56,792 nucleotides of DNA from Minisyncoccota bacterium (GTDB taxonomy: Bacteria > Patescibacteriota > Minisyncoccia > Phycocordibacterales > WO2-35-19), in the NCBI GenBank assembly GCA_041664625.1, contig JBAYKK010000005.1:1-56792 (forward strand), in the 5' to 3' direction. Numbering within the stretch: the first letter of the stretch is position 1; every line of letters begins with the position of its first letter. Below, piece after piece: positions 3,431-56,600 of this stretch. A program made the position numbers and the translations under genes. The notes beneath the pieces were generated by a model. The model made no database searches and had not been told where the DNA came from. It saw only the letters and a list, made by a program, of their open reading frames with translations.

Positions 3431-6400
3431 TTAATTGTTATTGATAATATATATTAAATCATTTTTCAAAAGATCTCGAGCCTCAACTGTTATCTTGTTT
3501 TTCTTTAGAAGGAAATCGAGTTCCTTTTCAATCAGCTTGATGATAATTTTATCTACTCTTTTTTCATATTTTCCGTTTCTCTTTTTCTCAAATTTGATGA
3601 TTAGTTTGGCCTCCTTTATAAGACCATCTCTCGTCTTTTTATCCTTAATCCAACCAAGGATGTAGGCCTCATTAATATCTGTAATCAAAGTATCCAATGT
3701 AACCACTCTTTCAACTTTTATATTTTCTGGATTTTGATTATCCAGATTTAAAGACAAATCAGTAATTTGATTAGGTGTGATAACTCCTGAAGTTTCCGCT
3801 GTAGCCGAGGTCTGATCAGATATGTAAGTAGTTTCAAAACTATATGATCCACCACCGTCCGTTCCCTGCAATTGAATCTTGTATTCTCCGTCTAGTGGAT
3901 CGGGAATCGTCAAATATTCATCATCAGTATTGAAGCCAGAATAAAACGCCCCCGGAATTTCATTGATTTCATTACCTGTTACAAAATCTTTACCAATTCT
4001 CTTCCCGTCGGGAGCGATTACTACAAAATCAGCCGGGGAAAATATTTTGGCAAATAGAATCTTTAGAGGTAAAGAGGTTTTGACTGGGTCAACCATTTCT
4101 CCCCCATTTATTTCAGTAAATATTTCTTCTTCCGCATCAGTTGGCAGGTTTATGTGACCAGATGGTAGTCTCATATCAATAGAATTGCTAATTGATGCGC
4201 TAACAATAGGTACAGTACCATCACCCGAACCCATTATTAATCCTTTATCTCCAGAACTTTTGTCATAATTTTCAGGATATCCGTGTTCCCAAAGGGGAAG
4301 TTTGTTTGAATCAACAACTCGAATACCTGTTATGGTACTTTCTGTGTCTGATATTATATTCAAAATATCTATATCAGATTCTAGGAAGGCGACAAGTCCT
4401 TGTTTAAGATTTTCAAGAAAATCATTTTTAGGATAACCTATCGGGTAATTTAGAGTTTGATTGGTTGTGACTTCTTGAAGATAGTTTGAAATTGGTAGCA
4501 ATTCTTGAGCAGAAATAATGGGCCATTGATGGATATAATCAAAAAGATTATCATATCCGAGTTTTTTTGCTTCTTTTTCATAATGAGATTTTATAAAGCC
4601 ATCAATCATACCAGGCGGAAATTCGCCCGCTTCCCAAATCAAATAATCTTTGGGCGCTCCTTGGTGAGGAGTGCCAAGGAAAATCAATTGGTCAATGTCA
4701 TTTTCATAACCACCAGATTGGGCATAACTTCTCGCCACAAGTCCTCCCATTGAATGAGCTATTATATCAACTTGGTTACAATCGCAAATATTTTTGATCG
4801 AATCAATTTTTTGTTTAAGAAGTGCTGCTGTTTCAATGTTTGAATTTTTCCAATCATATCCAAAAGGAAAAAGGCTTTCTCCACGAACATAGCCGTTGTT
4901 TTCCAAAGTTTCAATCAAGTTATCGTAAACATGAAAAATCGGATCAATAGTCCAAACCCCATCTTTATATACACTCCCCATAATCCCCGGGATGATGATG
5001 ACTGGGTTGATTGTTGGCTCTTCGATGACTACAGGAGGCCAAGCGCCTAGGAATGGAGTGTACAAAACATTGTCGGTTATCATGGTTCCTGAACCAGTTG
5101 GTGTGCCAACATAGGTATTATTTGGTCCATCGGCACTTCCCCACCAGTTGTCCCGAGCATCAATAATTTGAAGAGGCTTAGTTTCCCACCACCAACCCAA
5201 ATCTTTGCCACTATCGTTATAAACTCCATAACCAGTCATAACCAAACTTGATTGTGAAATAGTAGCGGCACCTCCTCGAGACCAAAGCCCATTATCACCA
5301 ACCAATTCACTCTTACTTATTGTGGTAGTCCCAGCATCTTGATAAATCGCCGCTCCACTGTTGTATTTAAGTATTGAATTTGAAATTGAAAGGTTCGCTC
5401 CTCTTTGATAAATAGTGGCGGCAACTCCGGCCAAATATTCGCCATTCCAATTGAAACCACCATAACCTAGCGTCACATAATCAAACTCGGCGTTTGAACC
5501 ATTTTCCAAAAATATTGAGGCCCAATTTCTCGGAGCTGGAGTGGTGGCGTCACCATCGCCGTTAGTGTCACCCCCAATCGAATCGTCTTTCAAAGAAGTG
5601 ATGTAGATTTTATTTTCGGCAGTGCCTTTGGCAATCAAGTTGCCACCTTGGACATTTATGGAACCATTGGTATATCTGTCCTCCATTTTTATAATCACCC
5701 CCGGTTCTATAGTCAGAGTAATGCCTGCAGGAATCACAAGGTATTCAATAATATACGGCAAATCGCCAGCACTCAAAGTGGTGTCTTGAGACAAGACACC
5801 ATTAATTCCAAATGCTTTCCTTTTAATATCAGAGCTGGTGTTGCCCGAATGAATAAACTCTTTGGAAGCTTCAATCATACCCGTCCTATCGTTACCAGAA
5901 AAAACATTATTTGTAAGAGTGAGCTTCCCTGGGCCGTAGGCAGAAATACCGTAACCAGGGCCATACCCAGTGCCATCAACATTGTTTCTGATTTCGTTGT
6001 TTGAAATGGTGACATCACCCGAGTCAATGCGTACCCCGACTATATTATTTTCAATAATTGAATGGGTAAGGGAAAGGGTGCCGCTTATATTATAAATCCC
6101 ATTACCTGCCGACATCTGCCCCCCTGCCCCATTTGAAGTTATTCTGAAATTTTCATGTATGTATGAATTTTTTATATCTACTGTGCCGCCATCATTTTCG
6201 ATACTTACATAATCTCCATAGCCGTAACCACCATAACCCGCATATGAAAAATCAATGTATTCCAAAATTCCCTCCGAGCCCGGTTTGAAATATAATCCTT
6301 GCCACTCGCCAGGACTACTGACACTAGGGCCCGTTCCATCGGTGTCTCCACCAACTTCGTCATTCCAAAAAGAGGTGAAATAAACTGGTTGATTCTCGGT

Positions 6401-20136: not shown

Positions 20137-21528
20137 TTATAACATTTTTTGTTTGAGGAAAGAAAGCAAATCTTTTTCAGCCACCCTTTCTTGTTCACCA
20201 CTGTCACGTTCGCGTACAGTCACTCCGCCTTCTTTTTCAATAGTATCAAAATCAATAGTCACACAAAAAGGTGTACCAATCTCATCTTGTCTTCGGTATC
20301 TCTTTCCAATATTTCCATTGTCATCAAATTCAACTGCTCCAAATTCTTTCCTAAGGTTTTGGAAAATTTCTCGAGCTTTCGCAACAAGCTCTGGTTTATT
20401 TTTGAGAAGCGGAAATACGGCCACTTTGACCGGAGCGAGCTCTGGTTTGAGCGCCAAATAAACCCTCTTTTCTCCCCCTAATTCATCTTCTCTATACGCA
20501 TCTGCCAAAAATGCCGTGAACATACGGCCCATACCAACCGAGGTCTCCAATATCCAAGGTATATATTTTTCTCCTGTTTCTTGGTCAACATAATTAAGAT
20601 CGGTCCCCGAAAATTTCATATGCTGGCTCAAATCATAATCCGTCCGATCATGAACACCTTCTAATTCATCGAAGCCTAAAGATGGGAAATTGTATTCTAT
20701 ATCCCATGCGTCTTTGGCGTAAAAAACTAGATTTTCATGTTGATGCCAACGCAAATTTTCTTCACGAATACCCATTGAAAGATACCAGTCAAAGCGCTCT
20801 TGCTTGATTTTTTCGTAGGCTTCTTTGTTTTCGTTTGGTTTGATAAAAAATTGAGTATCAGCTTGTTCAAACTCGCGCACTCTAAAAAGAAAATTGCGAG
20901 GAGAAATTTCGTTTCGAAAAGCCTTACCGATCTGTGAAATACCAAACGGGATTTTGGGATGCATCGAGTCCACGATATTTTTGTAATCAAGATAAATACC
21001 CTGACAAGCCTCCCCTGGTAGATAAACCGGCTCAGCACCTTCAGAAGTGAAGTCCCCTAGATTACTTTTGACCAAAAGATTAAACTTTTTAACTTTAGAA
21101 AAATCCTTAGCCCCACACTTTTCACAAACTATTTTATCTCTATTTTCATCAAAAACTTCATTGAGTTTTGCCTCATCCATTTTTTCATCAGCACTGACGC
21201 CGATTGCATTCAAAACTTTATCAACTCGGATACGGGTATTGCATTTTTTACATTCTGCCAATGGATCAGAAAATCCGGTGGTATGCCCACTCGCATCCCA
21301 CACTTTAGGATGTTTAAACATGCCCGCGTCAAGACCATAATAATTATCTTTTTGATATACGTTGGCGTTCCACCATGCCCTTTTCAAATTATTTAAAAGC
21401 TCAACTCCGCGTGGACCAAAATCAAAAACTCCGGCTAGCCCACCATAAATCTCAGAACCTTGAAAGACAAAACCTCGCCTTTTGCAAAGCGAAATTATTT
21501 TATCCATTTGATTTTCTTCTTTTGCCAT
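20137..21528 (-). CDS. glyQS: Glycine--tRNA ligase (alpha2 type)
   Basis: LCKRRGFVF..SEIYGG, GEACQGIY, GKAFRNEISP..FLFRVREFEQ, GKRYRRQDEIGTP; ATG 21528 preferred. Confidence 0.96.
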   Translation of the reverse strand: MAKEENQMDKIISLCKRRGFVFQGSEIYGGLAGVFDFGPRGVELLNNLKRAWWNANVYQKDNYYGLDAGMFKHPKVWDASGHTTGFSDPLAECKKCNTRIRVDKVLNAIGVSADEKMDEAKLNEVFDENRDKIVCEKCGAKDFSKVKKFNLLVKSNLGDFTSEGAEPVYLPGEACQGIYLDYKNIVDSMHPKIPFGISQIGKAFRNEISPRNFLFRVREFEQADTQFFIKPNENKEAYEKIKQERFDWYLSMGIREENLRWHQHENLVFYAKDAWDIEYNFPSLGFDELEGVHDRTDYDLSQHMKFSGTDLNYVDQETGEKYIPWILETSVGMGRMFTAFLADAYREDELGGEKRVYLALKPELAPVKVAVFPLLKNKPELVAKAREIFQNLRKEFGAVEFDDNGNIGKRYRRQDEIGTPFCVTIDFDTIEKEGGVTVRERDSGEQERVAEKDLLSFLKQKML

Positions 21529-21563
21529 AATTCTATAATAACTCACTTTCCTTTCGTTTTCCA

Positions 21564-21604
21564 GAGGGTGACCCTTGAGGATTTTGCCCCAAAGGGTCAC
21601 CCTC
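21564..21604. repeat. 13-bp inverted repeat at the RT stop
   Basis: GAGGGTGACCCTT...AAGGGTCACCCTC. Confidence 0.75.
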
Positions 21605-22598
21605 AAATTTTTTTAATTTGCTCCCACAACTTCCACCCACTCCCCCATCCTAACATCCCCAAATACGAAGCTACTGTATTTTCTCTTTGTTTTCCTTCTT
21701 TTGAATTTATATTCCTAAACATTTTCTTTTTAGTTGCAGTTCGCAATACTCGGTGATTTGGAAAATGTACCCAACCCAAAAAATCAACTCCCGAATATAG
21801 GGTTTTAACAAAAAGTTTGTCTGAATGAAGAGTTAAATTCAATTCTTCTTTTAGGAAATCTGCAATTTTTGGTACTAGTTCCAAAATATAATCTTGATCT
21901 GTATCTAAAATAACAAAATCATCTGCGTATCTAATATAATGTTTGATTTTTAACTTGTGTTTAATAAATTGATCAAATTTGTTTAAGTACACATTTATAA
22001 AAAGTTGGGATGTTAAATTACCCAGTGGCAAACCAACCTCAATTTTATTTTTTGTATTGAAACTTGAAACTACTTTTTCCAAAAGCCAAATTATATTTTC
22101 ATCTTTTATATATTCTTTCAAGATTTTAATCAGTATTTCGTGACCAATACTGGCAAAACACTTCTTAACATCACCTTTTAAAACCCAACAAGTTTTTGTG
22201 TTGTTTTTTGATACTTTCTTACCAAAATCTCTAAAACGATTTAAGGCTTTGTGTGTACCTTTGAAATTTCGGCAAGAAAAAGAATCAAAAACGAATAATC
22301 GATCAAAATATGAATACAAAATTCTGTAGACAGCGTGATGCAAAAGTCTGTCTCGAACTGTAGCTTTGTGAATATTGCGAGGTTTTGGATCGTTTATGGA
22401 AAAAGCAAAATATCCACCGTGTTTGTATGATTTGTTCGTTAAATCAAAGTGAAGCTCTGATATATTATGTGAAAGATTGAGCGCAAACTCAGCCACATCT
22501 TTTTTGTTTTTCTTACCTGGTAAAAATTCCTGCCAAGCGTCATAAAGATTTTTAACTGATATAATGTTTTGGTAATCAATTTTAATTAAATTTTTCAT
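21603..22598 (-). CDS. DGR-class reverse transcriptase
   Basis: KPRNIH..TVRDRLLHHAV, GTHKAL, LKGDVKKCFASI, GLPLGNLTSQ, YIRYADDF, GVDFLG, SYLG; ATG 22598 (MKNLIKID) preferred to the MGGGG extension. Confidence 0.96.
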   Translation of the reverse strand: MKNLIKIDYQNIISVKNLYDAWQEFLPGKKNKKDVAEFALNLSHNISELHFDLTNKSYKHGGYFAFSINDPKPRNIHKATVRDRLLHHAVYRILYSYFDRLFVFDSFSCRNFKGTHKALNRFRDFGKKVSKNNTKTCWVLKGDVKKCFASIGHEILIKILKEYIKDENIIWLLEKVVSSFNTKNKIEVGLPLGNLTSQLFINVYLNKFDQFIKHKLKIKHYIRYADDFVILDTDQDYILELVPKIADFLKEELNLTLHSDKLFVKTLYSGVDFLGWVHFPNHRVLRTATKKKMFRNINSKEGKQRENTVASYLGMLGWGSGWKLWEQIKKI

Positions 22599-22982
22599 AT
22601 GCAAACCAATTCTACCCCCCCCCCCCAAGAATTACCAAAATTAATCCCCAAAAAAAAAAAATACTAAACCCTTTGGCAAAAACTGCATAGAGATTTCCCA
22701 AGAGTTGAACGGCTTGGTATAGGACAAAAGATTGAAAATATTTTTCTTTTTGTATTAGAGTTAACTTTTTATTCCGCATATTTACCTCTAGAACCTAAAA
22801 TACTGATGCTCGGTAAAGCTATATCTAAACTAGATATTTTAAAATTTTTTATACAACTAGCTTGGGAGAATAAATTGATTTCCACAGATCAACACATTGA
22901 ACTGTCTCAAAACTTGGAGGAAATCGGGCGACAACTTGGTGGTTGGAAAAAAGGACTTGAAGCAAAACTCCCGTCAAAATAA
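22599..22982 (+). pseudogene. avd: Avd-like four-helix-bundle accessory protein, antisense to TR/RT, with in-frame TAA at 22665-22667
   Basis: Own translation: MQTNSTPPPQELPKLIPKKKKY*TLWQKLHRDFPRVERLGIGQKIENIFLFVLELTFYSAYLPLEPKILMLGKAISKLDILKFFIQLAWENKLISTDQHIELSQNLEEIGRQLGGWKKGLEAKLPSK; IGRQLGGW tail typical of Avd/bAvd. Confidence 0.85.
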
Positions 22983-23004
22983 TGACGGGAGAAATGATTA
23001 GTTT

Positions 23005-23120
23005 CGGAAGGACAATGCGATGACGATTGTCGCCATTCCACACGTTGGCGTTCGAGAAGCGATTGACGTTCACGTTCGGCCTACCGTCAGTGTTCAGGTT
23101 CACGTTAGCAACGAAGAACT
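23005..23120 (-). repeat. DGR template repeat (TR)
   Basis: AAC-rich, reads FFVANVNLNTDGRPNVNVNRFSNANVWNGDNRHRIVLP; ungapped match to 23436-23551. Confidence 0.96.
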
Positions 23121-23339
23121 TGTGCTATAAATCTTCCGTTGCACCACCCATCAAACCATGACAAGTTGAATATTATTCGGGACATAAAAGTCCACTAATT
23201 TATAGCACCAACTAATTATTTTTTGTTTATAAAAATATATCCACTCTTTTGTAAGACGTATCCGACAAAATTCTCAAATATACTTTTATACAACCATGGC
23301 ACCGAAGCCATAACCGCGGCGCTTGCATATTGCAAGTTT

Positions 23340-23348
23340 AGTATAACA
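23340..23348 (-). promoter_or_regulatory. Extended -10 element, candidate promoter for the TR-RT transcript
   Basis: TG-T-TATACT on the minus strand about 220 nt upstream of TR. Confidence 0.45.
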
Positions 23349-23350
23349 AA

Positions 23351-23394
23351 AATCCCCCAAACCCGCCCACAATTGGGAAAGGGTCTGAGGGATT
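23351..23394 (-). terminator. Hairpin/terminator downstream of the DGR target gene
   Basis: Minus strand AATCCCTCAGACCC...GGGTTTGGGGGATT followed by a T-run; pairing needs G-U wobbles. Confidence 0.65.
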
Positions 23395-23414
23395 AAGAGT
23401 CAAAGGATCAAACC

Positions 23415-24044
23415 TTAGGACTCAAGGGTCAGTTGCGGAAGGACAATGCGACGACGAAAGCCGCCACGCCACACGCCGGCGCTCGAGACGCGACCGACGC
23501 CCACGCCCGGCCCACCGTCAGTGCTCAGGCCCACGAAAGCAACGAAGAACTCACCCGCCACCTTGAATAAAAAGAAGGTGGAGTAACCACCAGTGCGAAG
23601 CCACTGCTTGTGGTCGCACACAAAAGCGATGATCTGCTCCTGGGTGAGGCAGAGATCATCCAAACTCCGTCCGAGACTACTGAAGATGGTTTTGAAGTCT
23701 CCGTCTTGGAACATCTCGTAGACTTGGACGGGAGTTTCTGGTTTTGCTTCTTCGGGGACATCGAGACCCCAGTTTTTGAAGTCGGGGTCAAGGTACCCAG
23801 TGAACACTTCCTTGGCGGAAGTGATGGTTTTGGTGCCGGTGGTGGCGGAGATGGTGACACTGGCGGAGATGGAGCGGAGGATTGATGCCACCGCTTTCTC
23901 CACCTTCACCCAACACGGCTCCTTGCGGAGGAACTTTTTCAATTCGTTTCCCCACAGTTCGGCGTCGTTGCCGAGCAAGTTTTTCATCAGTTGGTTAAGC
24001 AGTCCAACGAACTGCTGGAGCGCTTCACTGAGCATATTATTCAT
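23415..24044 (-). CDS. DGR target protein (209 aa), VR in the C-terminal 40 residues
   Basis: VR encodes FFVAFVGLSTDGGPGVGVGRVSSAGVWRGGFRRRIVLP; SD GAAAGGA; visibly GC-richer than flanks. Confidence 0.95.
   Translation of the reverse strand: MNNMLSEALQQFVGLLNQLMKNLLGNDAELWGNELKKFLRKEPCWVKVEKAVASILRSISASVTISATTGTKTITSAKEVFTGYLDPDFKNWGLDVPEEAKPETPVQVYEMFQDGDFKTIFSSLGRSLDDLCLTQEQIIAFVCDHKQWLRTGGYSTFFLFKVAGEFFVAFVGLSTDGGPGVGVGRVSSAGVWRGGFRRRIVLPQLTLES
23436..23551 (-). repeat. DGR variable repeat (VR)
   Basis: 22 mismatches to TR in 116 bp, 21 at TR adenines. Confidence 0.96.
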
Positions 24045-24112
24045 GGTCAGTTTCCTTTCAAATTTCTGTACAGGTTTTTATTTGGTTTTCACCTTCCTGC
24101 ACTCTACCTAAA

Positions 24113-24142
24113 TTATACACCCAAACACCCTACTTTGTCAAG
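24113..24142 (-). promoter_or_regulatory. sigma70 promoter of the DGR target
   Basis: TTGACA-N18-TATAAT. Confidence 0.6.
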
Positions 24143-24184
24143 CAAAAATTGTAAATACGGCTTAAAATAAGAGTTTTGGTGGAG

Positions 24185-26152
24185 TTACTCCACCACCTTG
24201 TCATCTCCTACTTTGAAAGTAGGGTCTCCAAAGAAGCTGATAGTACCTGGGTTGGTTTTGGATTCAATTTTTAAACCAGTGATTTTATCAATACCAGAAA
24301 AAGTAGCCCCACCCAAAAGATTTGGGGTTTGACCTACCTGACTTATACTTGGCAAGAATTCTAGTTGGAAATACACCTCCTTTTTGGGTGAGCCAAAACC
24401 AGTATTTGGCAGAATTGATCCTATATTCCAAACCACTTCGTTGGTCACTTTATTAAAAGAAATTATTTCACTGCTTGGACTGCTCAAATTGGTCCACTTT
24501 ACATACGAAGGCAGAGTGGCTCTGACCTCGGCATTACTGACTTGATTGAACGAATTACCGACACTCCACACTACTGTATAAGTAGTCGGCACATCAGCTT
24601 TTGGTGGGATTGGTCCAGAATTTTCAATACTACCGACAGATCTTGTTATTTTTGAAGAAAAATTAATATTAGTGGTCAAAACAATTTTTCTAACTTCAGT
24701 GACGGATACCGTCTCAGTCGAACCAGATTCGGATACTCTTTCGCCTTTTATTTTTATAGTCATTTGTATTTCTGGTTTAACTCCTTTGGCTATATCCGCA
24801 TACAAAAGAGGGACCAAACGAAAAGATAAACTTTTTTCAGATCCAGGGCTCATGTCAGCAAATTCTGAGACTGACCTTTTGTCCCACAAAATAGTATTAT
24901 TGAATGATTGGAAAAATCCGGTATTACCAGCAAAAACTCCTGCTGGGCTAAACGCTCCACCAGTCAAAGTGGCTTCTGCCGACACGTCAAACAATCTTGA
25001 AGGTAAATTATTGATTACGACAAATTCAGTGGCCACCTGGCCATCTCCTTTGGCGGCATAATCCCCTTCCTTACCTTCAATGAACACATCCAAACCTATG
25101 AAAGATTTTTTGACCAAAACAGATTCCATAAGTTGAGAAAAAGGTACCGCTATTATCCTTTCGTCATCTACACTCGCTGTACCGGTATTTATTTTGAAAA
25201 CTTTTTCTTCGTTGTCTTGACCTATGACACTACCCCTCACTACGATGTTTTTCTTTTCGCCAGAATTAAGTTGAGAAAATTTCCAAACATTATTACCAAA
25301 AGAAGCTTTGGGTGTCGAATCTTTAAATACAAAACCAAAAGGATATTCCAAACTGACTAAGAGATCACCAACTTGATCTTTGGAATTTGAAGCAACTTCG
25401 ACGTCCAAAGAAATTTCTTGATTGGAATTGACCTCTTTAGGGTAAGTAGCAGTGACGATTATGGGAGCGGAGCTGATAGATAATTCGTGGACTTTTTCTT
25501 TATAAAAAAGAGCACTGGAGTTGGCTACTCGATATTCCAAAGAAATTTTAATTTGTTTGGAGCTACCTTTTTCTCCAAAAAAAACTAATTTTATATTTTT
25601 GCTATAGCTTTCTCCTTTTTTTATGACTCCTAAATCAAATCTTTCTTGACTGAGTTCTTTGGAAAGATCTACCGAGGATCGAGTGCCAGTAGCATATTCA
25701 ATAAACAAAGAAGCTGAGTCCAGGTCCACATTGTTATTGTTTACAATATTGATATCCAAAGAAACTTCTTGCCCTCCCCCCACCTGAAGTGGCCCGACTA
25801 CTTTTATGTCCACATTTTTTGAAGAAACCGAATTCATACCACCAAAAAAGACGAAAGCCGCCACTCCCGCTGCCAAAACAAAAAACAAAACCGATGCCAT
25901 GAAAATTTTATTTACGAAATTATGTTTTTTTTGAGCCATATTTGATATTTTAGAAGTTAACTCATCAAAACTACCCGCTTTTTGATCTTGCCAATTTTCT
26001 TTTATTTCGGAATCTTCTGTATTGTTAAATTCTTCTTTTTTTTCAACACTCAAATCAGATCGCCCTTTATCAATAATATCTGGAGCGTTCCTAGAATAGA
26101 GCTTCCTTTCTAGTCGATCCAATTTTTCTCTTTTTTCATCTCCATATTCCAT
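24185..26152 (-). CDS. Membrane-anchored multi-Ig-like hypothetical protein
   Basis: Single TM (IFMASVLFFVLAAGVAAFVFF) then long beta-rich extracellular region; ATG 26152 preferred. Confidence 0.8.
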   Translation of the reverse strand: MEYGDEKREKLDRLERKLYSRNAPDIIDKGRSDLSVEKKEEFNNTEDSEIKENWQDQKAGSFDELTSKISNMAQKKHNFVNKIFMASVLFFVLAAGVAAFVFFGGMNSVSSKNVDIKVVGPLQVGGGQEVSLDINIVNNNNVDLDSASLFIEYATGTRSSVDLSKELSQERFDLGVIKKGESYSKNIKLVFFGEKGSSKQIKISLEYRVANSSALFYKEKVHELSISSAPIIVTATYPKEVNSNQEISLDVEVASNSKDQVGDLLVSLEYPFGFVFKDSTPKASFGNNVWKFSQLNSGEKKNIVVRGSVIGQDNEEKVFKINTGTASVDDERIIAVPFSQLMESVLVKKSFIGLDVFIEGKEGDYAAKGDGQVATEFVVINNLPSRLFDVSAEATLTGGAFSPAGVFAGNTGFFQSFNNTILWDKRSVSEFADMSPGSEKSLSFRLVPLLYADIAKGVKPEIQMTIKIKGERVSESGSTETVSVTEVRKIVLTTNINFSSKITRSVGSIENSGPIPPKADVPTTYTVVWSVGNSFNQVSNAEVRATLPSYVKWTNLSSPSSEIISFNKVTNEVVWNIGSILPNTGFGSPKKEVYFQLEFLPSISQVGQTPNLLGGATFSGIDKITGLKIESKTNPGTISFFGDPTFKVGDDKVVE

Positions 26153-54254: not shown

Positions 54255-54722
54255 TCAGCTTACTCCTCTTGGCCCACGGAGATAGTTGATTTCCCACGCC
54301 TCTGTGTGCCATCGCCCGTCAGTGCGTATCGTAAACCGACGGGATGCTGTTCCTGCGTACTGCCCAGGTTGACATCCCGCACTCTTTCGGTCTGCTTCGC
54401 TGGGGGTCGGTGGGCAGATCCCTCGCGCTGTGATGACGATGTCCCGCCGGCCGAGAAAGTTATAGTAGCCCCGCGAAACCGTCACCCCCGAAGGAATGAT
54501 AGCGTTTACGAATTGGCCAGTGGTGGTTTTGAAAGCCACCACTTGTCCGTTTTCGTATACCTCGATCGGCACGGTAGTGTTATTGGTCAACACTACGGTC
54601 AAAATTGGAGGGGTGGCAATCGATGAAAGCCGACCCCAACCTGCCCCACCTCGAGCCGCGACACATCCAGTTAAAAACATGACCGAAAGTGCCAGAAATA
54701 AGATCGAAGTCTTGTTTTTCAT
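54255..54722 (-). CDS. GC-richer lipoprotein
   Basis: MKNKTSILFLALSVMFLTGC lipobox; SD AGGAG; promoter TTGACA-N17-TATAAT at 54745-54773. Confidence 0.85.
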   Translation of the reverse strand: MKNKTSILFLALSVMFLTGCVAARGGAGWGRLSSIATPPILTVVLTNNTTVPIEVYENGQVVAFKTTTGQFVNAIIPSGVTVSRGYYNFLGRRDIVITARGICPPTPSEADRKSAGCQPGQYAGTASRRFTIRTDGRWHTEAWEINYLRGPRGVS

Positions 54723-54789
54723 AAAACTCACACTCCTGTCCTGCATTATAGCAAAGTCAAAGCTAAATGTCAAGCGTTTTTGAATCACA

Positions 54790-54920: not shown

Positions 54921-56600
54921 ATGACTATAAAATTTGATGAAGATAAACAAAGACAAAAACTTGAAGAACTCAGAGCAAATGAAGAAGAAAGTTTGGCCCA
55001 AGCAATGTCAAATAAATACGGGATACCTTATATAGACCTCAGTGTTAACCCGGTAAACATCGATGCCTTACGAGTAATAAAAGAACCAGAAGCGAGAGAA
55101 GCTGAAGTCGCCTCTTTCAACATCATCAACAAAAAAGTCTCTCTAGCAATCATCTCTCCCAACAATCCAAAAACTACTACTCTGATTGAAGGGCTGAAGG
55201 ACCGAGGTTATATCCCCTCTTTGTTTTTGGCCTCTCATCAAAGCTTAGAGAAAATATGGAACCGCTACAAGGATTTATCATACTCAATGGAGACCAAAAG
55301 TGGAGCACTCGATATCGCCAACGAAGAAATCCAAGATTTAGTAAAGAGTGTCAAAACCGCTGCCGACATCAAAAAATCCATCGAGACTATTTTGGCTCAG
55401 AAAAAAAGTTATCGTATTTCTAAAATATTAGAAATAATTTTGGCTGGAGCTATTTCTATAGGAGCTTCCGATATTCACATCGAACCAGAAGACACATCGG
55501 TCAGATTGCGTTTCCGTTTAGATGGAGTTTTGAATGATATTTTAACTTTGGATTCGGCTACTTTTAATCTTTTGCTTTCTCGTATCAAACTAATTTCCAA
55601 TCTCAAGTTAAACCTTAGAGGTAAGGCTCAAGACGGGCGTTTCAGTATCAAACTAGGTGATAGCGAAATTGAAATCCGTACTTCCCTTTTGCCGGGTGGT
55701 TACGGTGAGTCTGTAGTATTACGAGTTTTGAACCCTAATGCTATTTCAGTTTCTTTGGAAGAGCTTGGTATAAATGAAAAACTATTACAAATAATATTAA
55801 AGGAGTTAAAAAAACCAAACGGTATGATTTTGAATACCGGTCCAACTGGCTCTGGTAAAACCACCACTCTTTACGCTTTCCTCAAAAAAATTCACACACC
55901 AGAAATAAAAATAATAACCATTGAAAACCCGATCGAATACCACTTGAAAGGTATCGTGCAAACTCAAGTAGAAGAAGAAAAAGGTTATACTTTTTTGGAA
56001 GGTTTGCGTAGTGCCTTGCGTCAAGACCCTGATGTCATAATGGTTGGTGAAATCCGCGATGAAGAAACCGCTGAGATTGCTATCAATTCGGCTTTGACTG
56101 GCCACTTAGTTTTTTCTACTCTGCACACCAACAATGCGGCCGGCACATTCCCCCGTCTGATTGACTTAGGTGTAAACTCCAAAGTCATAAGTTCAGCCAT
56201 CAACATCGCTATGGCCCAGAGACTTTTGCGAAGATTGTGCAATAAATGCAAAAAAATAATGACTCTGGAAGATAAAGAAAATAAATTGATAAAAGATGTT
56301 ACTGATAGTATTTCAGACAAAAAATATTTAGAAGGAATAGATTTAAAAAATGTTTACGAAGCGGTGGGTTGCGAAGCGTGCAACTTCACGGGCTACAAAG
56401 GCCGAACCGGTATTTATGAGGCTATATTAACTGACGAAAATGTTGAGATAATCGTCAAAGAAAATCCGAGTGAAAGAGAAATCAATAAGGCTTCAGAAAA
56501 TCAAGGTATTTTAAATATGAGACAAGATGGCATACTCAAAATATTGCAAGGTGTGACTTCCATCGACGAGCTCAGTCGTGTGATTGATTTGGAAGAATAG
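54921..56600 (+). CDS. pilB: PilB/GspE-type pilus assembly ATPase
   Basis: SDIHIEP, RFRLDG, AQDGRF, GPTGSGKTTT, ALRQDPDVIMVGEIRD, TGHLVFSTLHTN, C..C/C..C, GRTGIYE. Confidence 0.93.
   Translation: MTIKFDEDKQRQKLEELRANEEESLAQAMSNKYGIPYIDLSVNPVNIDALRVIKEPEAREAEVASFNIINKKVSLAIISPNNPKTTTLIEGLKDRGYIPSLFLASHQSLEKIWNRYKDLSYSMETKSGALDIANEEIQDLVKSVKTAADIKKSIETILAQKKSYRISKILEIILAGAISIGASDIHIEPEDTSVRLRFRLDGVLNDILTLDSATFNLLLSRIKLISNLKLNLRGKAQDGRFSIKLGDSEIEIRTSLLPGGYGESVVLRVLNPNAISVSLEELGINEKLLQIILKELKKPNGMILNTGPTGSGKTTTLYAFLKKIHTPEIKIITIENPIEYHLKGIVQTQVEEEKGYTFLEGLRSALRQDPDVIMVGEIRDEETAEIAINSALTGHLVFSTLHTNNAAGTFPRLIDLGVNSKVISSAINIAMAQRLLRRLCNKCKKIMTLEDKENKLIKDVTDSISDKKYLEGIDLKNVYEAVGCEACNFTGYKGRTGIYEAILTDENVEIIVKENPSEREINKASENQGILNMRQDGILKILQGVTSIDELSRVIDLEE

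Follow-up and report, generated by a model that had tools for sequence, protein, structure and literature searches.

In the diversity-generating retroelement (DGR) of Bordetella phage BPP-1, with its parts mtd-VR, avd, TR, and brt, sequence passes from a template repeat (TR) to a variable repeat (VR) at the 3' end of the target gene in an adenine-specific manner, and a reverse transcriptase (RT) with the motifs [I/L]GxxxSQ and YxDD has a small basic partner, Avd (accessory variability determinant). The locus described here shares all of these features and lies in a 56,792-nt stretch of DNA from Minisyncoccota bacterium GCA_041664625.1 (contig JBAYKK010000005.1); this whole stretch is called the window below, and positions count from its first letter. 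We are highly confident that the locus is a chromosomal, complete DGR of a lineage of the Patescibacteria, or Candidate Phyla Radiation (CPR). The boundaries that correspond to IMH and IMH* (initiation of mutagenic homing) likewise differ between VR and TR, as in BPP-1. Unlike in BPP-1, avd is inverted and is placed between TR and RT, the element is chromosomal rather than phage-borne, and the target is without a detectable lectin fold. In addition, BPP-1 has a ~140-nt spacer 3' of TR, whereas the element described here has a ~200-nt structured RNA 5' of TR and a ~45-nt hairpin-terminator 3' of it.

The arrangement TR-(avd)-RT is known as architecture B3, which is found in 90% of CPR DGRs (Wu et al. 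2018, PMC5758913), and CPR DGRs form a separate clade (DGR clade 2) whose targets are without recognisable domains (Roux et al. 2021, PMC8144416). Many CPR VR classes were left as "unknown VR 1-6" or ungrouped (Wu et al. 2018, PMC5758913). An earlier note on this DNA had called the locus a DGR and described such systems as common in CPR bacteria, the latter in agreement with both surveys (PMC5758913; PMC8144416). The window element has the same gene order, the same inverted avd, a groundwater Patescibacteria host, and a small target without recognisable transmembrane (TM) segments or domains; it is no different in kind from the B3 elements, but one of them. The element is ordinary for CPR bacteria, but little has been described of its target fold, of its template RNA, and of a conserved G/C run. 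To the thousands of catalogued CPR DGRs it adds one more, and its value lies in the comparison around it. The coordinates of all features are collected in Table 1; along the - strand the order is the target with VR, a terminator, the unit of RNA leader, TR, and terminator, then avd (on the + strand), and RT.

Table 1. Features of the DGR locus and their positions in the window
Feature	Position	Strand	Basis or remark
DGR reverse transcriptase, 331 aa	21603..22598	-	Pfam RVT_1 1e-21; best PDB match 8ub7_A
avd (accessory variability determinant)	22599..22982	+	Pfam bAvd 4.8e-12; opposite strand to RT, TR, and target
C12 run (G12 on RT strand)	22615..22626	.	avd/RT junction, 16 nt from RT ATG
Nine substitutions private to the window	22627..22667	.	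comparison with L001, X1, X2, and L085
Predicted intrinsic terminator of TR RNA, CTCCCGTCA-TTATTT-TGACGGGAG plus TTTTGCTT	22960..22991	-	terminator scan
Template repeat (TR)	22993..23120, core 23005-23120	-	repeat finder and ungapped comparison; outside any target-family open reading frame (ORF)
Structured RNA leader directly 5' of TR, six helices	23122..23322	-	RNAalifold, 43 loci
Leader helices H1, H2, H3	H1 23322-17/23304-299; H2 23288-76/23242-30; H3 23270-60/23257-47	-	
Leader helices H4, H5, H6	H4 23208-197/23133-22; H5 23193-90/23183-80; H6 23166-59/23153-46	-	
GC-rich hairpin then T-run, downstream of target stop codon	23351..23394	-	fold and conservation
Target gene, 209 aa, VR at C-terminus	23415..24044	-	ORF; Pfam-less family
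Variable repeat (VR)	23424..23551, core 23436-23551	-	repeat finder and ungapped comparison; encodes target residues ~166-206
Putative target promoter, TTGACA-18-TATAAT	24112..24141	-	consensus scan 12/12, pattern match only

Template and Variable Repeats

The single long direct repeat that the repeat finder returned in the region is 128 nt long, with its two copies at an offset of 431 nt. Over the core of 116 nt, TR and VR align without gaps and with 22 mismatches, 21 of which stand at a T of the + strand, that is, at an adenine of the target-coding - strand, so that the count given in the earlier note was reproduced exactly. Adenines make up 27 of the 116 nt of TR, and the hypergeometric probability that at least 21 of 22 mismatches fall on them is P = 9.5e-17. 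The adenine changes in the core are A>G (16), A>T (4), and A>C (1), and the odd mismatch, at 23058, is a T in TR and a G in VR on the - strand. The 12-nt extension of the homology to 22993/23424 adds three A>N changes and one T>C, which brings the whole 128-nt repeat to 24 of 26 mismatches at TR adenines.

All 27 TR adenines of the core lie at codon position 1 (13) or 2 (14) of the target frame and none at position 3. TR holds 10 AAY codons and translates in this frame as FFVANVNLNTDGRPNVNVNRFSNANVWNGDNRHRIVLPK. Because every TR adenine is at codon position 1 or 2, up to ~1.8e15 protein variants would be reachable. VR forms the C-terminus of the 209-aa target, as had been stated, and lies at the 3' end of its ORF. 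TR and VR share a 15-nt block at their 3' ends, after which the boundary reads CCGAAACT in TR and CCGCAACT in VR; this difference recurs in most relatives, and from its fixed occurrence we suggest that it plays the part of IMH* vs IMH. Neither a second VR matching this TR nor a paralogue of the target was found inside the 56.8-kb window.

Reverse Transcriptase and Avd

Residues 12-324 of the RT align with PDB entry 8ub7_A at 8e-35; the best value among group II intron and retron RTs is 4e-15. The protein of 8ub7_A (328 aa), which we take by its printed sequence to be the Bordetella enzyme bRT, shows IGSLTSQ and YMDD opposite LGNLTSQ and YADD of the window RT; this identification is provisional, as the search of PDB sequences with Avd gave no relevant match through which an Avd chain might have borne it out. 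The two RT motifs named in the earlier note were both located, GLPLGNLTSQ at residues 189-198 (nt 22034..22005) and YADD at residues 224-227 (nt 21929..21918). From these alignments, the enzyme appears to belong with DGR RTs rather than with those of group II introns or retrons.

Avd matches the Pfam bAvd profile with 46.8 bits (cutoff 40) from profile position 19 onwards and NCBIfam DivGenRetAVD at 3e-13, under cutoff; its predicted isoelectric point is 9.2. The presence of an Avd-like gene, as claimed before, is thereby borne out at a score above the Pfam cutoff, but it had been missed both that the gene is on the inverted strand and that it is broken in the window by an in-frame TAA at 22665-22667, the next canonical start codon coming only at 22806.

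Other copies of the same strain are present in an ENA contig (L001), a 192-kb JGI/NCBI contig (L085), and the Logan contigs X1 (SRR18595301) and X2 (SRR6484324). These four other assemblies match the window over thousands of bases save for nine positions (Table 1), and avd is intact in them, with 127-128 aa; it is likewise intact in L086. The private bases of the window create an A12 run and the TAA stop of avd, and they destroy the hairpin GAGGATTAC-CACAA-GTAATCCTC (22627-22649), which in the other copies is a perfect 9-bp hairpin directly after the C-run and which relatives keep base for base. Every one of the nine private bases is a copy of the adjacent base. This pattern looks like a sequencing or consensus error beside a homopolymer, with a private variant as the alternative, and therefore the A12 run and the avd stop are probably not real. 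The A12 run at 22650-22661, found in the window only, was rejected as a real feature.

Conservation of the Cassette in Patescibacteria

When one genome per species was scanned, relatives of the target turned up at 79 loci, all of them in Patescibacteria lineages, the closest in a Zambryskiibacteriota metagenome-assembled genome (MAG). Together with locus L004 and the window, these make up the 81 loci analysed. A reversed avd is present in 50 of the 81 and an RT in the same order in 42, and 44 loci have a TR 430-490 nt downstream of VR. The order target(+), TR, avd(-), RT(+) is found in ~40 species-level Patescibacteria loci. When 43 independent loci were pooled, 692 of 1309 TR adenines (53%) differed in VR, vs 39 of 3844 other positions (1%). 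The DGR call made in the earlier note is sustained by the adenine-restricted divergence of TR and VR, the DGR-like RT, the Avd gene, and the conservation of the cassette in dozens of Patescibacteria.

Some members of the family depart from this arrangement. About 29 of them (L009, L012, L013, and ~26 others) have no RT, avd, or TR within 4 kb. L009 shares its MAG with the DGR locus L006 and differs from the TR of the latter at 35 positions, just 19 of them adenines; of the two readings, diverged paralogue and current remote target of the L006 TR, the former is the likelier. On the L181 contig there are two VRs (1645-1764 and 4344-4462), up- and downstream of the cassette, with 13 of 14 and 20 of 21 differences at adenines, and L181 is a two-target DGR. 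In L033 (4370-4942), a single base sets the "TR" apart from VR, and with its AAC codons gone it resembles a diversified VR; this template looks degenerate or overwritten.

Structured RNA Leader and Terminators

The target stop codon and TR are separated by a 294-nt spacer that is conserved far beyond intergenic expectation. In the alignment of 43 loci, 92.9% of the cells of the six leader helices are paired, vs 42-52% when the partners are slid by 1-3 columns; compensatory double changes occur in 43 of the 50 pairs, and none of 500 shuffles reached any of the measures. The last helix strand stops 2 nt short of TR. Judging from this covariation, the RNA leader is well supported as a structure, and its role is a matter of hypothesis.

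The motifs RT-1 to RT-19 were described near RT genes, among them RT-10, which is the TR-RT spacer of Bordetella, and other RT motifs were guessed by the authors to serve DGRs (Weinberg et al. 2017, PMC5737381). The leader resembles Rfam RT-9 and RT-10 in being a conserved RNA beside RT genes. RT-9 (RF03080) matches the window at 23215-23324 with 28.3 bits, under the gathering score of 46.1, and covers H1 and the sequence after it; none of 17 relatives compared with RT-9 reaches the gathering threshold. RT-9 is modelled as a single hairpin; the leader extends over 200 nt and comprises six covarying helices.

A pattern built on H4-H5 finds at least 119 metagenome contigs. Judged by the flank available, a reversed avd follows the leader in 90 of 97 contigs and an RT in 59 of 68, and a target of the family precedes it in 81 of 91. 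Seven of the 10 contigs without a family target (L106, L116, L120, L126, L160, L186, and L202) have a different TR class (VFAVNVNWNADNRKWNCNANRLDDNRWNAGNR...) with its own adenine-biased VR behind the same leader. An eighth exception, L153, has a further TR type, for which a VR was sought and not found. Since the same leader serves other TR classes, the RNA belongs to the retroelement and not to the target, and since it precedes two TR classes, one DGR lineage serves at least two target families.

On its other side, TR is followed by a predicted intrinsic terminator with its hairpin at 22991-22968, and the convergent avd has its stop codon within this element. In at least 37 of 44 related loci, TR is directly followed on its 3' side by a hairpin and a T-rich tail (TTTT); the stems vary in sequence yet pair. 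The TR RNA is thus predicted to be a self-contained unit of ~370 nt consisting of leader, TR, and terminator. In Bordetella, too, the RNA depends on segments flanking TR on either side, but with the large structured part 3' of TR. The leader and the terminator would bound a minimal CPR DGR RNA, reconstitutable with the 331-aa RT and the 128-aa Avd.

A 90-nt stretch downstream of VR folds at -38.8 kcal/mol. The GC-rich hairpin on this target side is kept in L002 and L004, where Watson-Crick pairs replace G-U pairs of the window, and the block is conserved in 43 loci. We read this hairpin as the target terminator, and it may also correspond to the hairpin that other DGRs have downstream of IMH. 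As for the promoter of TR, TGGATA-17-AATAAT (23243-23215) was rejected, being inside the conserved leader helix H2. The extended -10 element TGTTATACT at 23348-23340 is a better candidate, unproven as it is.

Target Protein and Its Fold

The target family is large, with 348 matches in 90% clusters and 2630 representatives of 50% clusters, 1014 of them below 1e-30, and its members carry one source name, "hypothetical protein." No Pfam model covers it, and its 2630 clusters at 50% identity place it among the largest unannotated families of DGR targets. The conserved unit is formed by the C-terminal ~160 residues, of which some proteins have two or three copies; three tandem copies of this domain are present in P0122 (476 aa) and P0123 (560 aa). 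A Pfam scan of the multi-copy members gave no informative extra domains. In agreement with the earlier note, which had seen no obvious signal peptide or TM segment, the target has neither a hydrophobic N-terminus nor a TM segment.

The earlier note had further proposed a C-type lectin (CLec) fold for the target. This proposal found no support in Pfam and NCBIfam, in PDB sequences, or in two Foldseek searches, the element order alone being compatible with it. The target had no match in Pfam or NCBIfam at E up to 1, no family recurred when 36 family members were scanned against Pfam at E up to 10, and a profile search of PDB sequences with the target gave nothing relevant; similarity to families of the CLec, FGE-sulfatase, or DUF1566 type was thus seen in none of these searches. 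AlphaFold modelled the full-length protein with a predicted local distance difference test score (pLDDT) of 86.5 and residues 53-209 with a pLDDT of 94.3 and a predicted template modelling score (pTM) of 0.90. With both models, Foldseek found no match at E <= 0.001 among 350,542 PDB chains, the best E being 0.6 and 1.0 with TM scores of at most 0.27. No lectin, formylglycine-generating enzyme (FGE), or DGR variable protein was among the 50 PDB matches listed in either search, from which very distant folds can escape. A Foldseek search of BFVD returned nothing.

The VR-bearing domain may nevertheless be a C-type lectin fold that has diverged strongly and has no inserts, rather than a new scaffold, and we put the chance of this at a little under even. 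The lectin fold of AvpA has the order beta1-alpha1-alpha2-beta2-beta3-beta4-beta4'-beta5 (Handa et al. 2016, PMC5006420), and uncharacterised VR domains of CPR bacteria are expected to be new CLec variants (Roux et al. 2021, PMC8144416). In the AlphaFold model of residues 53-209 of the target, a strand (52-59) is followed by helices (65-70, 76-79, and 83-92) and then by strands (104-110, 113-121, 127-133, 139-140, and 147-151), a predicted order within the last 100 residues that would fit that of the lectins, and VR spans the last four strands, like in known variable proteins. The variable proteins Mtd, TvpA, AvpA, and TaqVP likewise have a C-terminal VR over the last beta-strands, and their AAY-encoded variable residues are likewise interleaved with conserved hydrophobic or aromatic ones (V, W, R). 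Against this stands that no lectin was among the Foldseek matches listed despite a pLDDT of 94 and a pTM of 0.90, that no CLec family matches in sequence or profile, and that BFVD gives no match. The target thus differs from Mtd, TvpA, AvpA, and TaqVP in having no sequence, profile, or Foldseek similarity to them, and also in that its variable residues alternate along a beta-hairpin (xNxNxN ... NxNxN).

According to the model, hydrophobic codons of TR take turns with the AAY codons over two predicted strands and the loop that precedes an invariant Trp, so that the variable residues are expected to make up one face of a beta-hairpin and the neighbouring loop. A confident model that matches nothing solved makes the statement that DGR VRs are always in C-type lectin folds testable on a small soluble protein.

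The target gene has 55% GC and a GC content at third codon positions (GC3) of 0.69, the highest of the 44 ORFs of the window (median GC3 0.34). The window has 38% GC and the RT gene 30%, RT and avd both being below the genome average. Over the 81 loci, the target family averages 8-9 GC points above its flanks. The sequence TTGACA-18-TATAAT upstream of the target was the sole perfect promoter match of the consensus scan in 21500-24250. The high GC of the target and this 12/12 promoter match may reflect high expression, for which biased gene conversion and foreign origin are alternatives.

Homopolymer at the avd/RT Junction

The C12 run is the only genuine homopolymer of at least nine in the 56.8 kb, the A12 run, as an artefact, being the second. 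A C/G run of 8-12 (mode 10) is present at the same junction in 36 of 49 genome loci; elsewhere in 583 kb there are just four such runs. Of 86 metagenome contigs, 54 have it too, and there it keeps a fixed distance of 580-668 nt to the RNA motif. In the avd frame the run reads PPP, with the conserved R-x-x-P-x-V-[IL]-x-K-x-K after it, and on the RT strand a -10-like box comes next. Within the strain, the run is C12 in the window, X1, and the JGI contig, and C10 in X2.

A translated poly-C with an upstream ATG as the start of avd was considered and found no support in this form. Of 36 genome loci, 12 have this ATG in frame, as do 14 of 57 metagenome loci (26 of 93 in all), which is the chance level, and a translational on/off switch is therefore not demonstrated. 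The -10-like TATAGT on the RT strand can explain part of the conservation of the upstream ATG. The run may equally well serve as spacer of an RT promoter, or in RNA or DNA structure.

The run resembles homopolymer contingency loci (e.g., the poly-G/C tracts in promoters and reading frames of Neisseria) in that it holds a fixed place in its AT-rich genome and spans a gene's 5' end, that of avd, together with the region just upstream of the -10-like box of the divergent RT. A further likeness is its difference in length between contigs of two samples of the strain. Unlike in contingency loci, the frame relation is no better than chance. We regard the resemblance as a lead and not as a finding. 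Our literature search found no paper that links DGRs with such a tract. To our knowledge, the regulation of the mutagenic system is not understood in any cellular DGR, and the conserved homopolymer is a candidate control point.

Activity of the Element

At 21-24 adenine positions, VR has been rewritten since TR and VR were the same, and homing has therefore occurred. In a related strain found in run X3, VR differs at three adenine-templated sites, and it differs also at two sites that are changed in TR-like contigs of the same run, all these contigs being short and of low depth. The differences suggest, as far as such contigs can, that TR was copied to VR after the strains diverged. Current activity in the window strain is unproven. 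A degenerate pattern made from the 3' 70 nt of TR (A -> N) had no match to other VR alleles or remote targets in the metagenome contigs.

Several points weigh against a complete DGR in working order. VR is identical in the window, the JGI/NCBI contig, the ENA contig, and the Logan contigs of SRR18595301 (2022) and SRR6484324 (2018), a comparison made at the level of contigs, which drop rare variants. The avd of the window carries a stop codon, and one mismatch of VR in the core is not at an adenine. The hairpin downstream of VR is 29 nt past the end of the homology, farther than in Bordetella, and may be a terminator only. Moreover, the transcript ends and the separate transcription unit of TR are predictions; the TR region was sought in RNA runs and was found in none.

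Some of these points can be accommodated if the element is a DGR by descent that is inactive or rarely active in this strain, its VR being a product of past diversification that has since become fixed as an allele. We take this to be a serious possibility, though on balance a doubtful one. The identity of VR in five assemblies from at least three samples released in 2018-2022, the non-adenine mismatch, and the stop codon in avd speak for it, as do the C10 run of X2, which puts the sole upstream ATG out of the avd frame, and the existence of at least one relative (L033) whose TR has no AAC codons. On the other hand, nothing is broken in the RT, the TR (which keeps all its AAY codons), the leader helices, or the terminator; four of the five assemblies have an intact avd; and minor alleles are invisible in contigs. 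Cellular DGRs are often quiescent without being dead, which we also count against an inactive element.

Proposed Working of the Element

The repeat pair with its adenine bias, the identity of RT and Avd, the conservation of the cassette, and the secondary structure of the RNA are what the analysis shows, and a way of working can be proposed from them. An RNA of ~370 nt would be made from about 23335 to about 22960, both ends being predicted, and would contain the six-helix leader, a TR of 116-128 nt, and the 3' hairpin terminator. The RT and the basic Avd, for which the leader may be the scaffold, would copy TR to cDNA, with priming presumably near the 3' hairpin of TR and with random bases inserted opposite the 27-30 template adenines. 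The cDNA would then replace VR in the target gene, and the direction of transfer would be set by the 3' boundaries, CCGCAACT in VR and CCGAAACT in TR. The variable residues would make one exposed face of the ~160-residue domain, which may serve in binding.

A stronger departure from Bordetella can be drawn from the same data, namely a different RNA layout, in which the six-helix 200-nt leader on the 5' side is the RT-Avd scaffold, TR has its own terminator, and the G/C run gates RT and/or avd, perhaps together with a target domain that is not a C-type lectin. We consider this less likely than not; a domain of that kind would give DGR hypervariation another natural scaffold, the second one, and would occur in more than 2600 protein clusters.

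That the locus is an ordinary diverged duplication beside an unrelated RT (of a group II intron, a retron, or a defence system) has a negligible probability and was ruled out by the adenine bias and its recurrence across related loci: the best NCBIfam match of the RT is indeed a group II intron RT/maturase model (133.7 bits), with Drt3a and retron models weaker, but these matches are far under their cutoffs (300, 200, and 235 bits for group II, Drt3a, and retron), P is 1e-16 for the mismatch pattern, more than 40 species share both the arrangement and its adenine bias, and Rfam gave neither intron RNA domains nor a retron msr/msd.

Genomic Neighbourhood

In L002/L006 and in L004, as compared with the window, the cassette is found at different points of one conserved neighbourhood (IleRS, RecO, a 655-670-aa protein, and GlyRS), and in L004 the genes for IleRS and RecO separate RT from the target, TR, and avd. 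Toxin genes of the PemK and YafQ types adjoin the cassette in relatives. In L027 (6444-6561), a LOOT RNA of Rfam (81 bits) lies just downstream of the DGR RT gene.

At the far end of the window, the ORF at 54255-54788 (- strand, 177 aa) is the second most GC-rich of the window (52% GC), and its signal peptide ends in a lipobox-like LTGC. Its product is likely a lipoprotein and may be foreign in origin. It adjoins the ORF at 54921-56600, which encodes a PilB/GspE-like ATPase.

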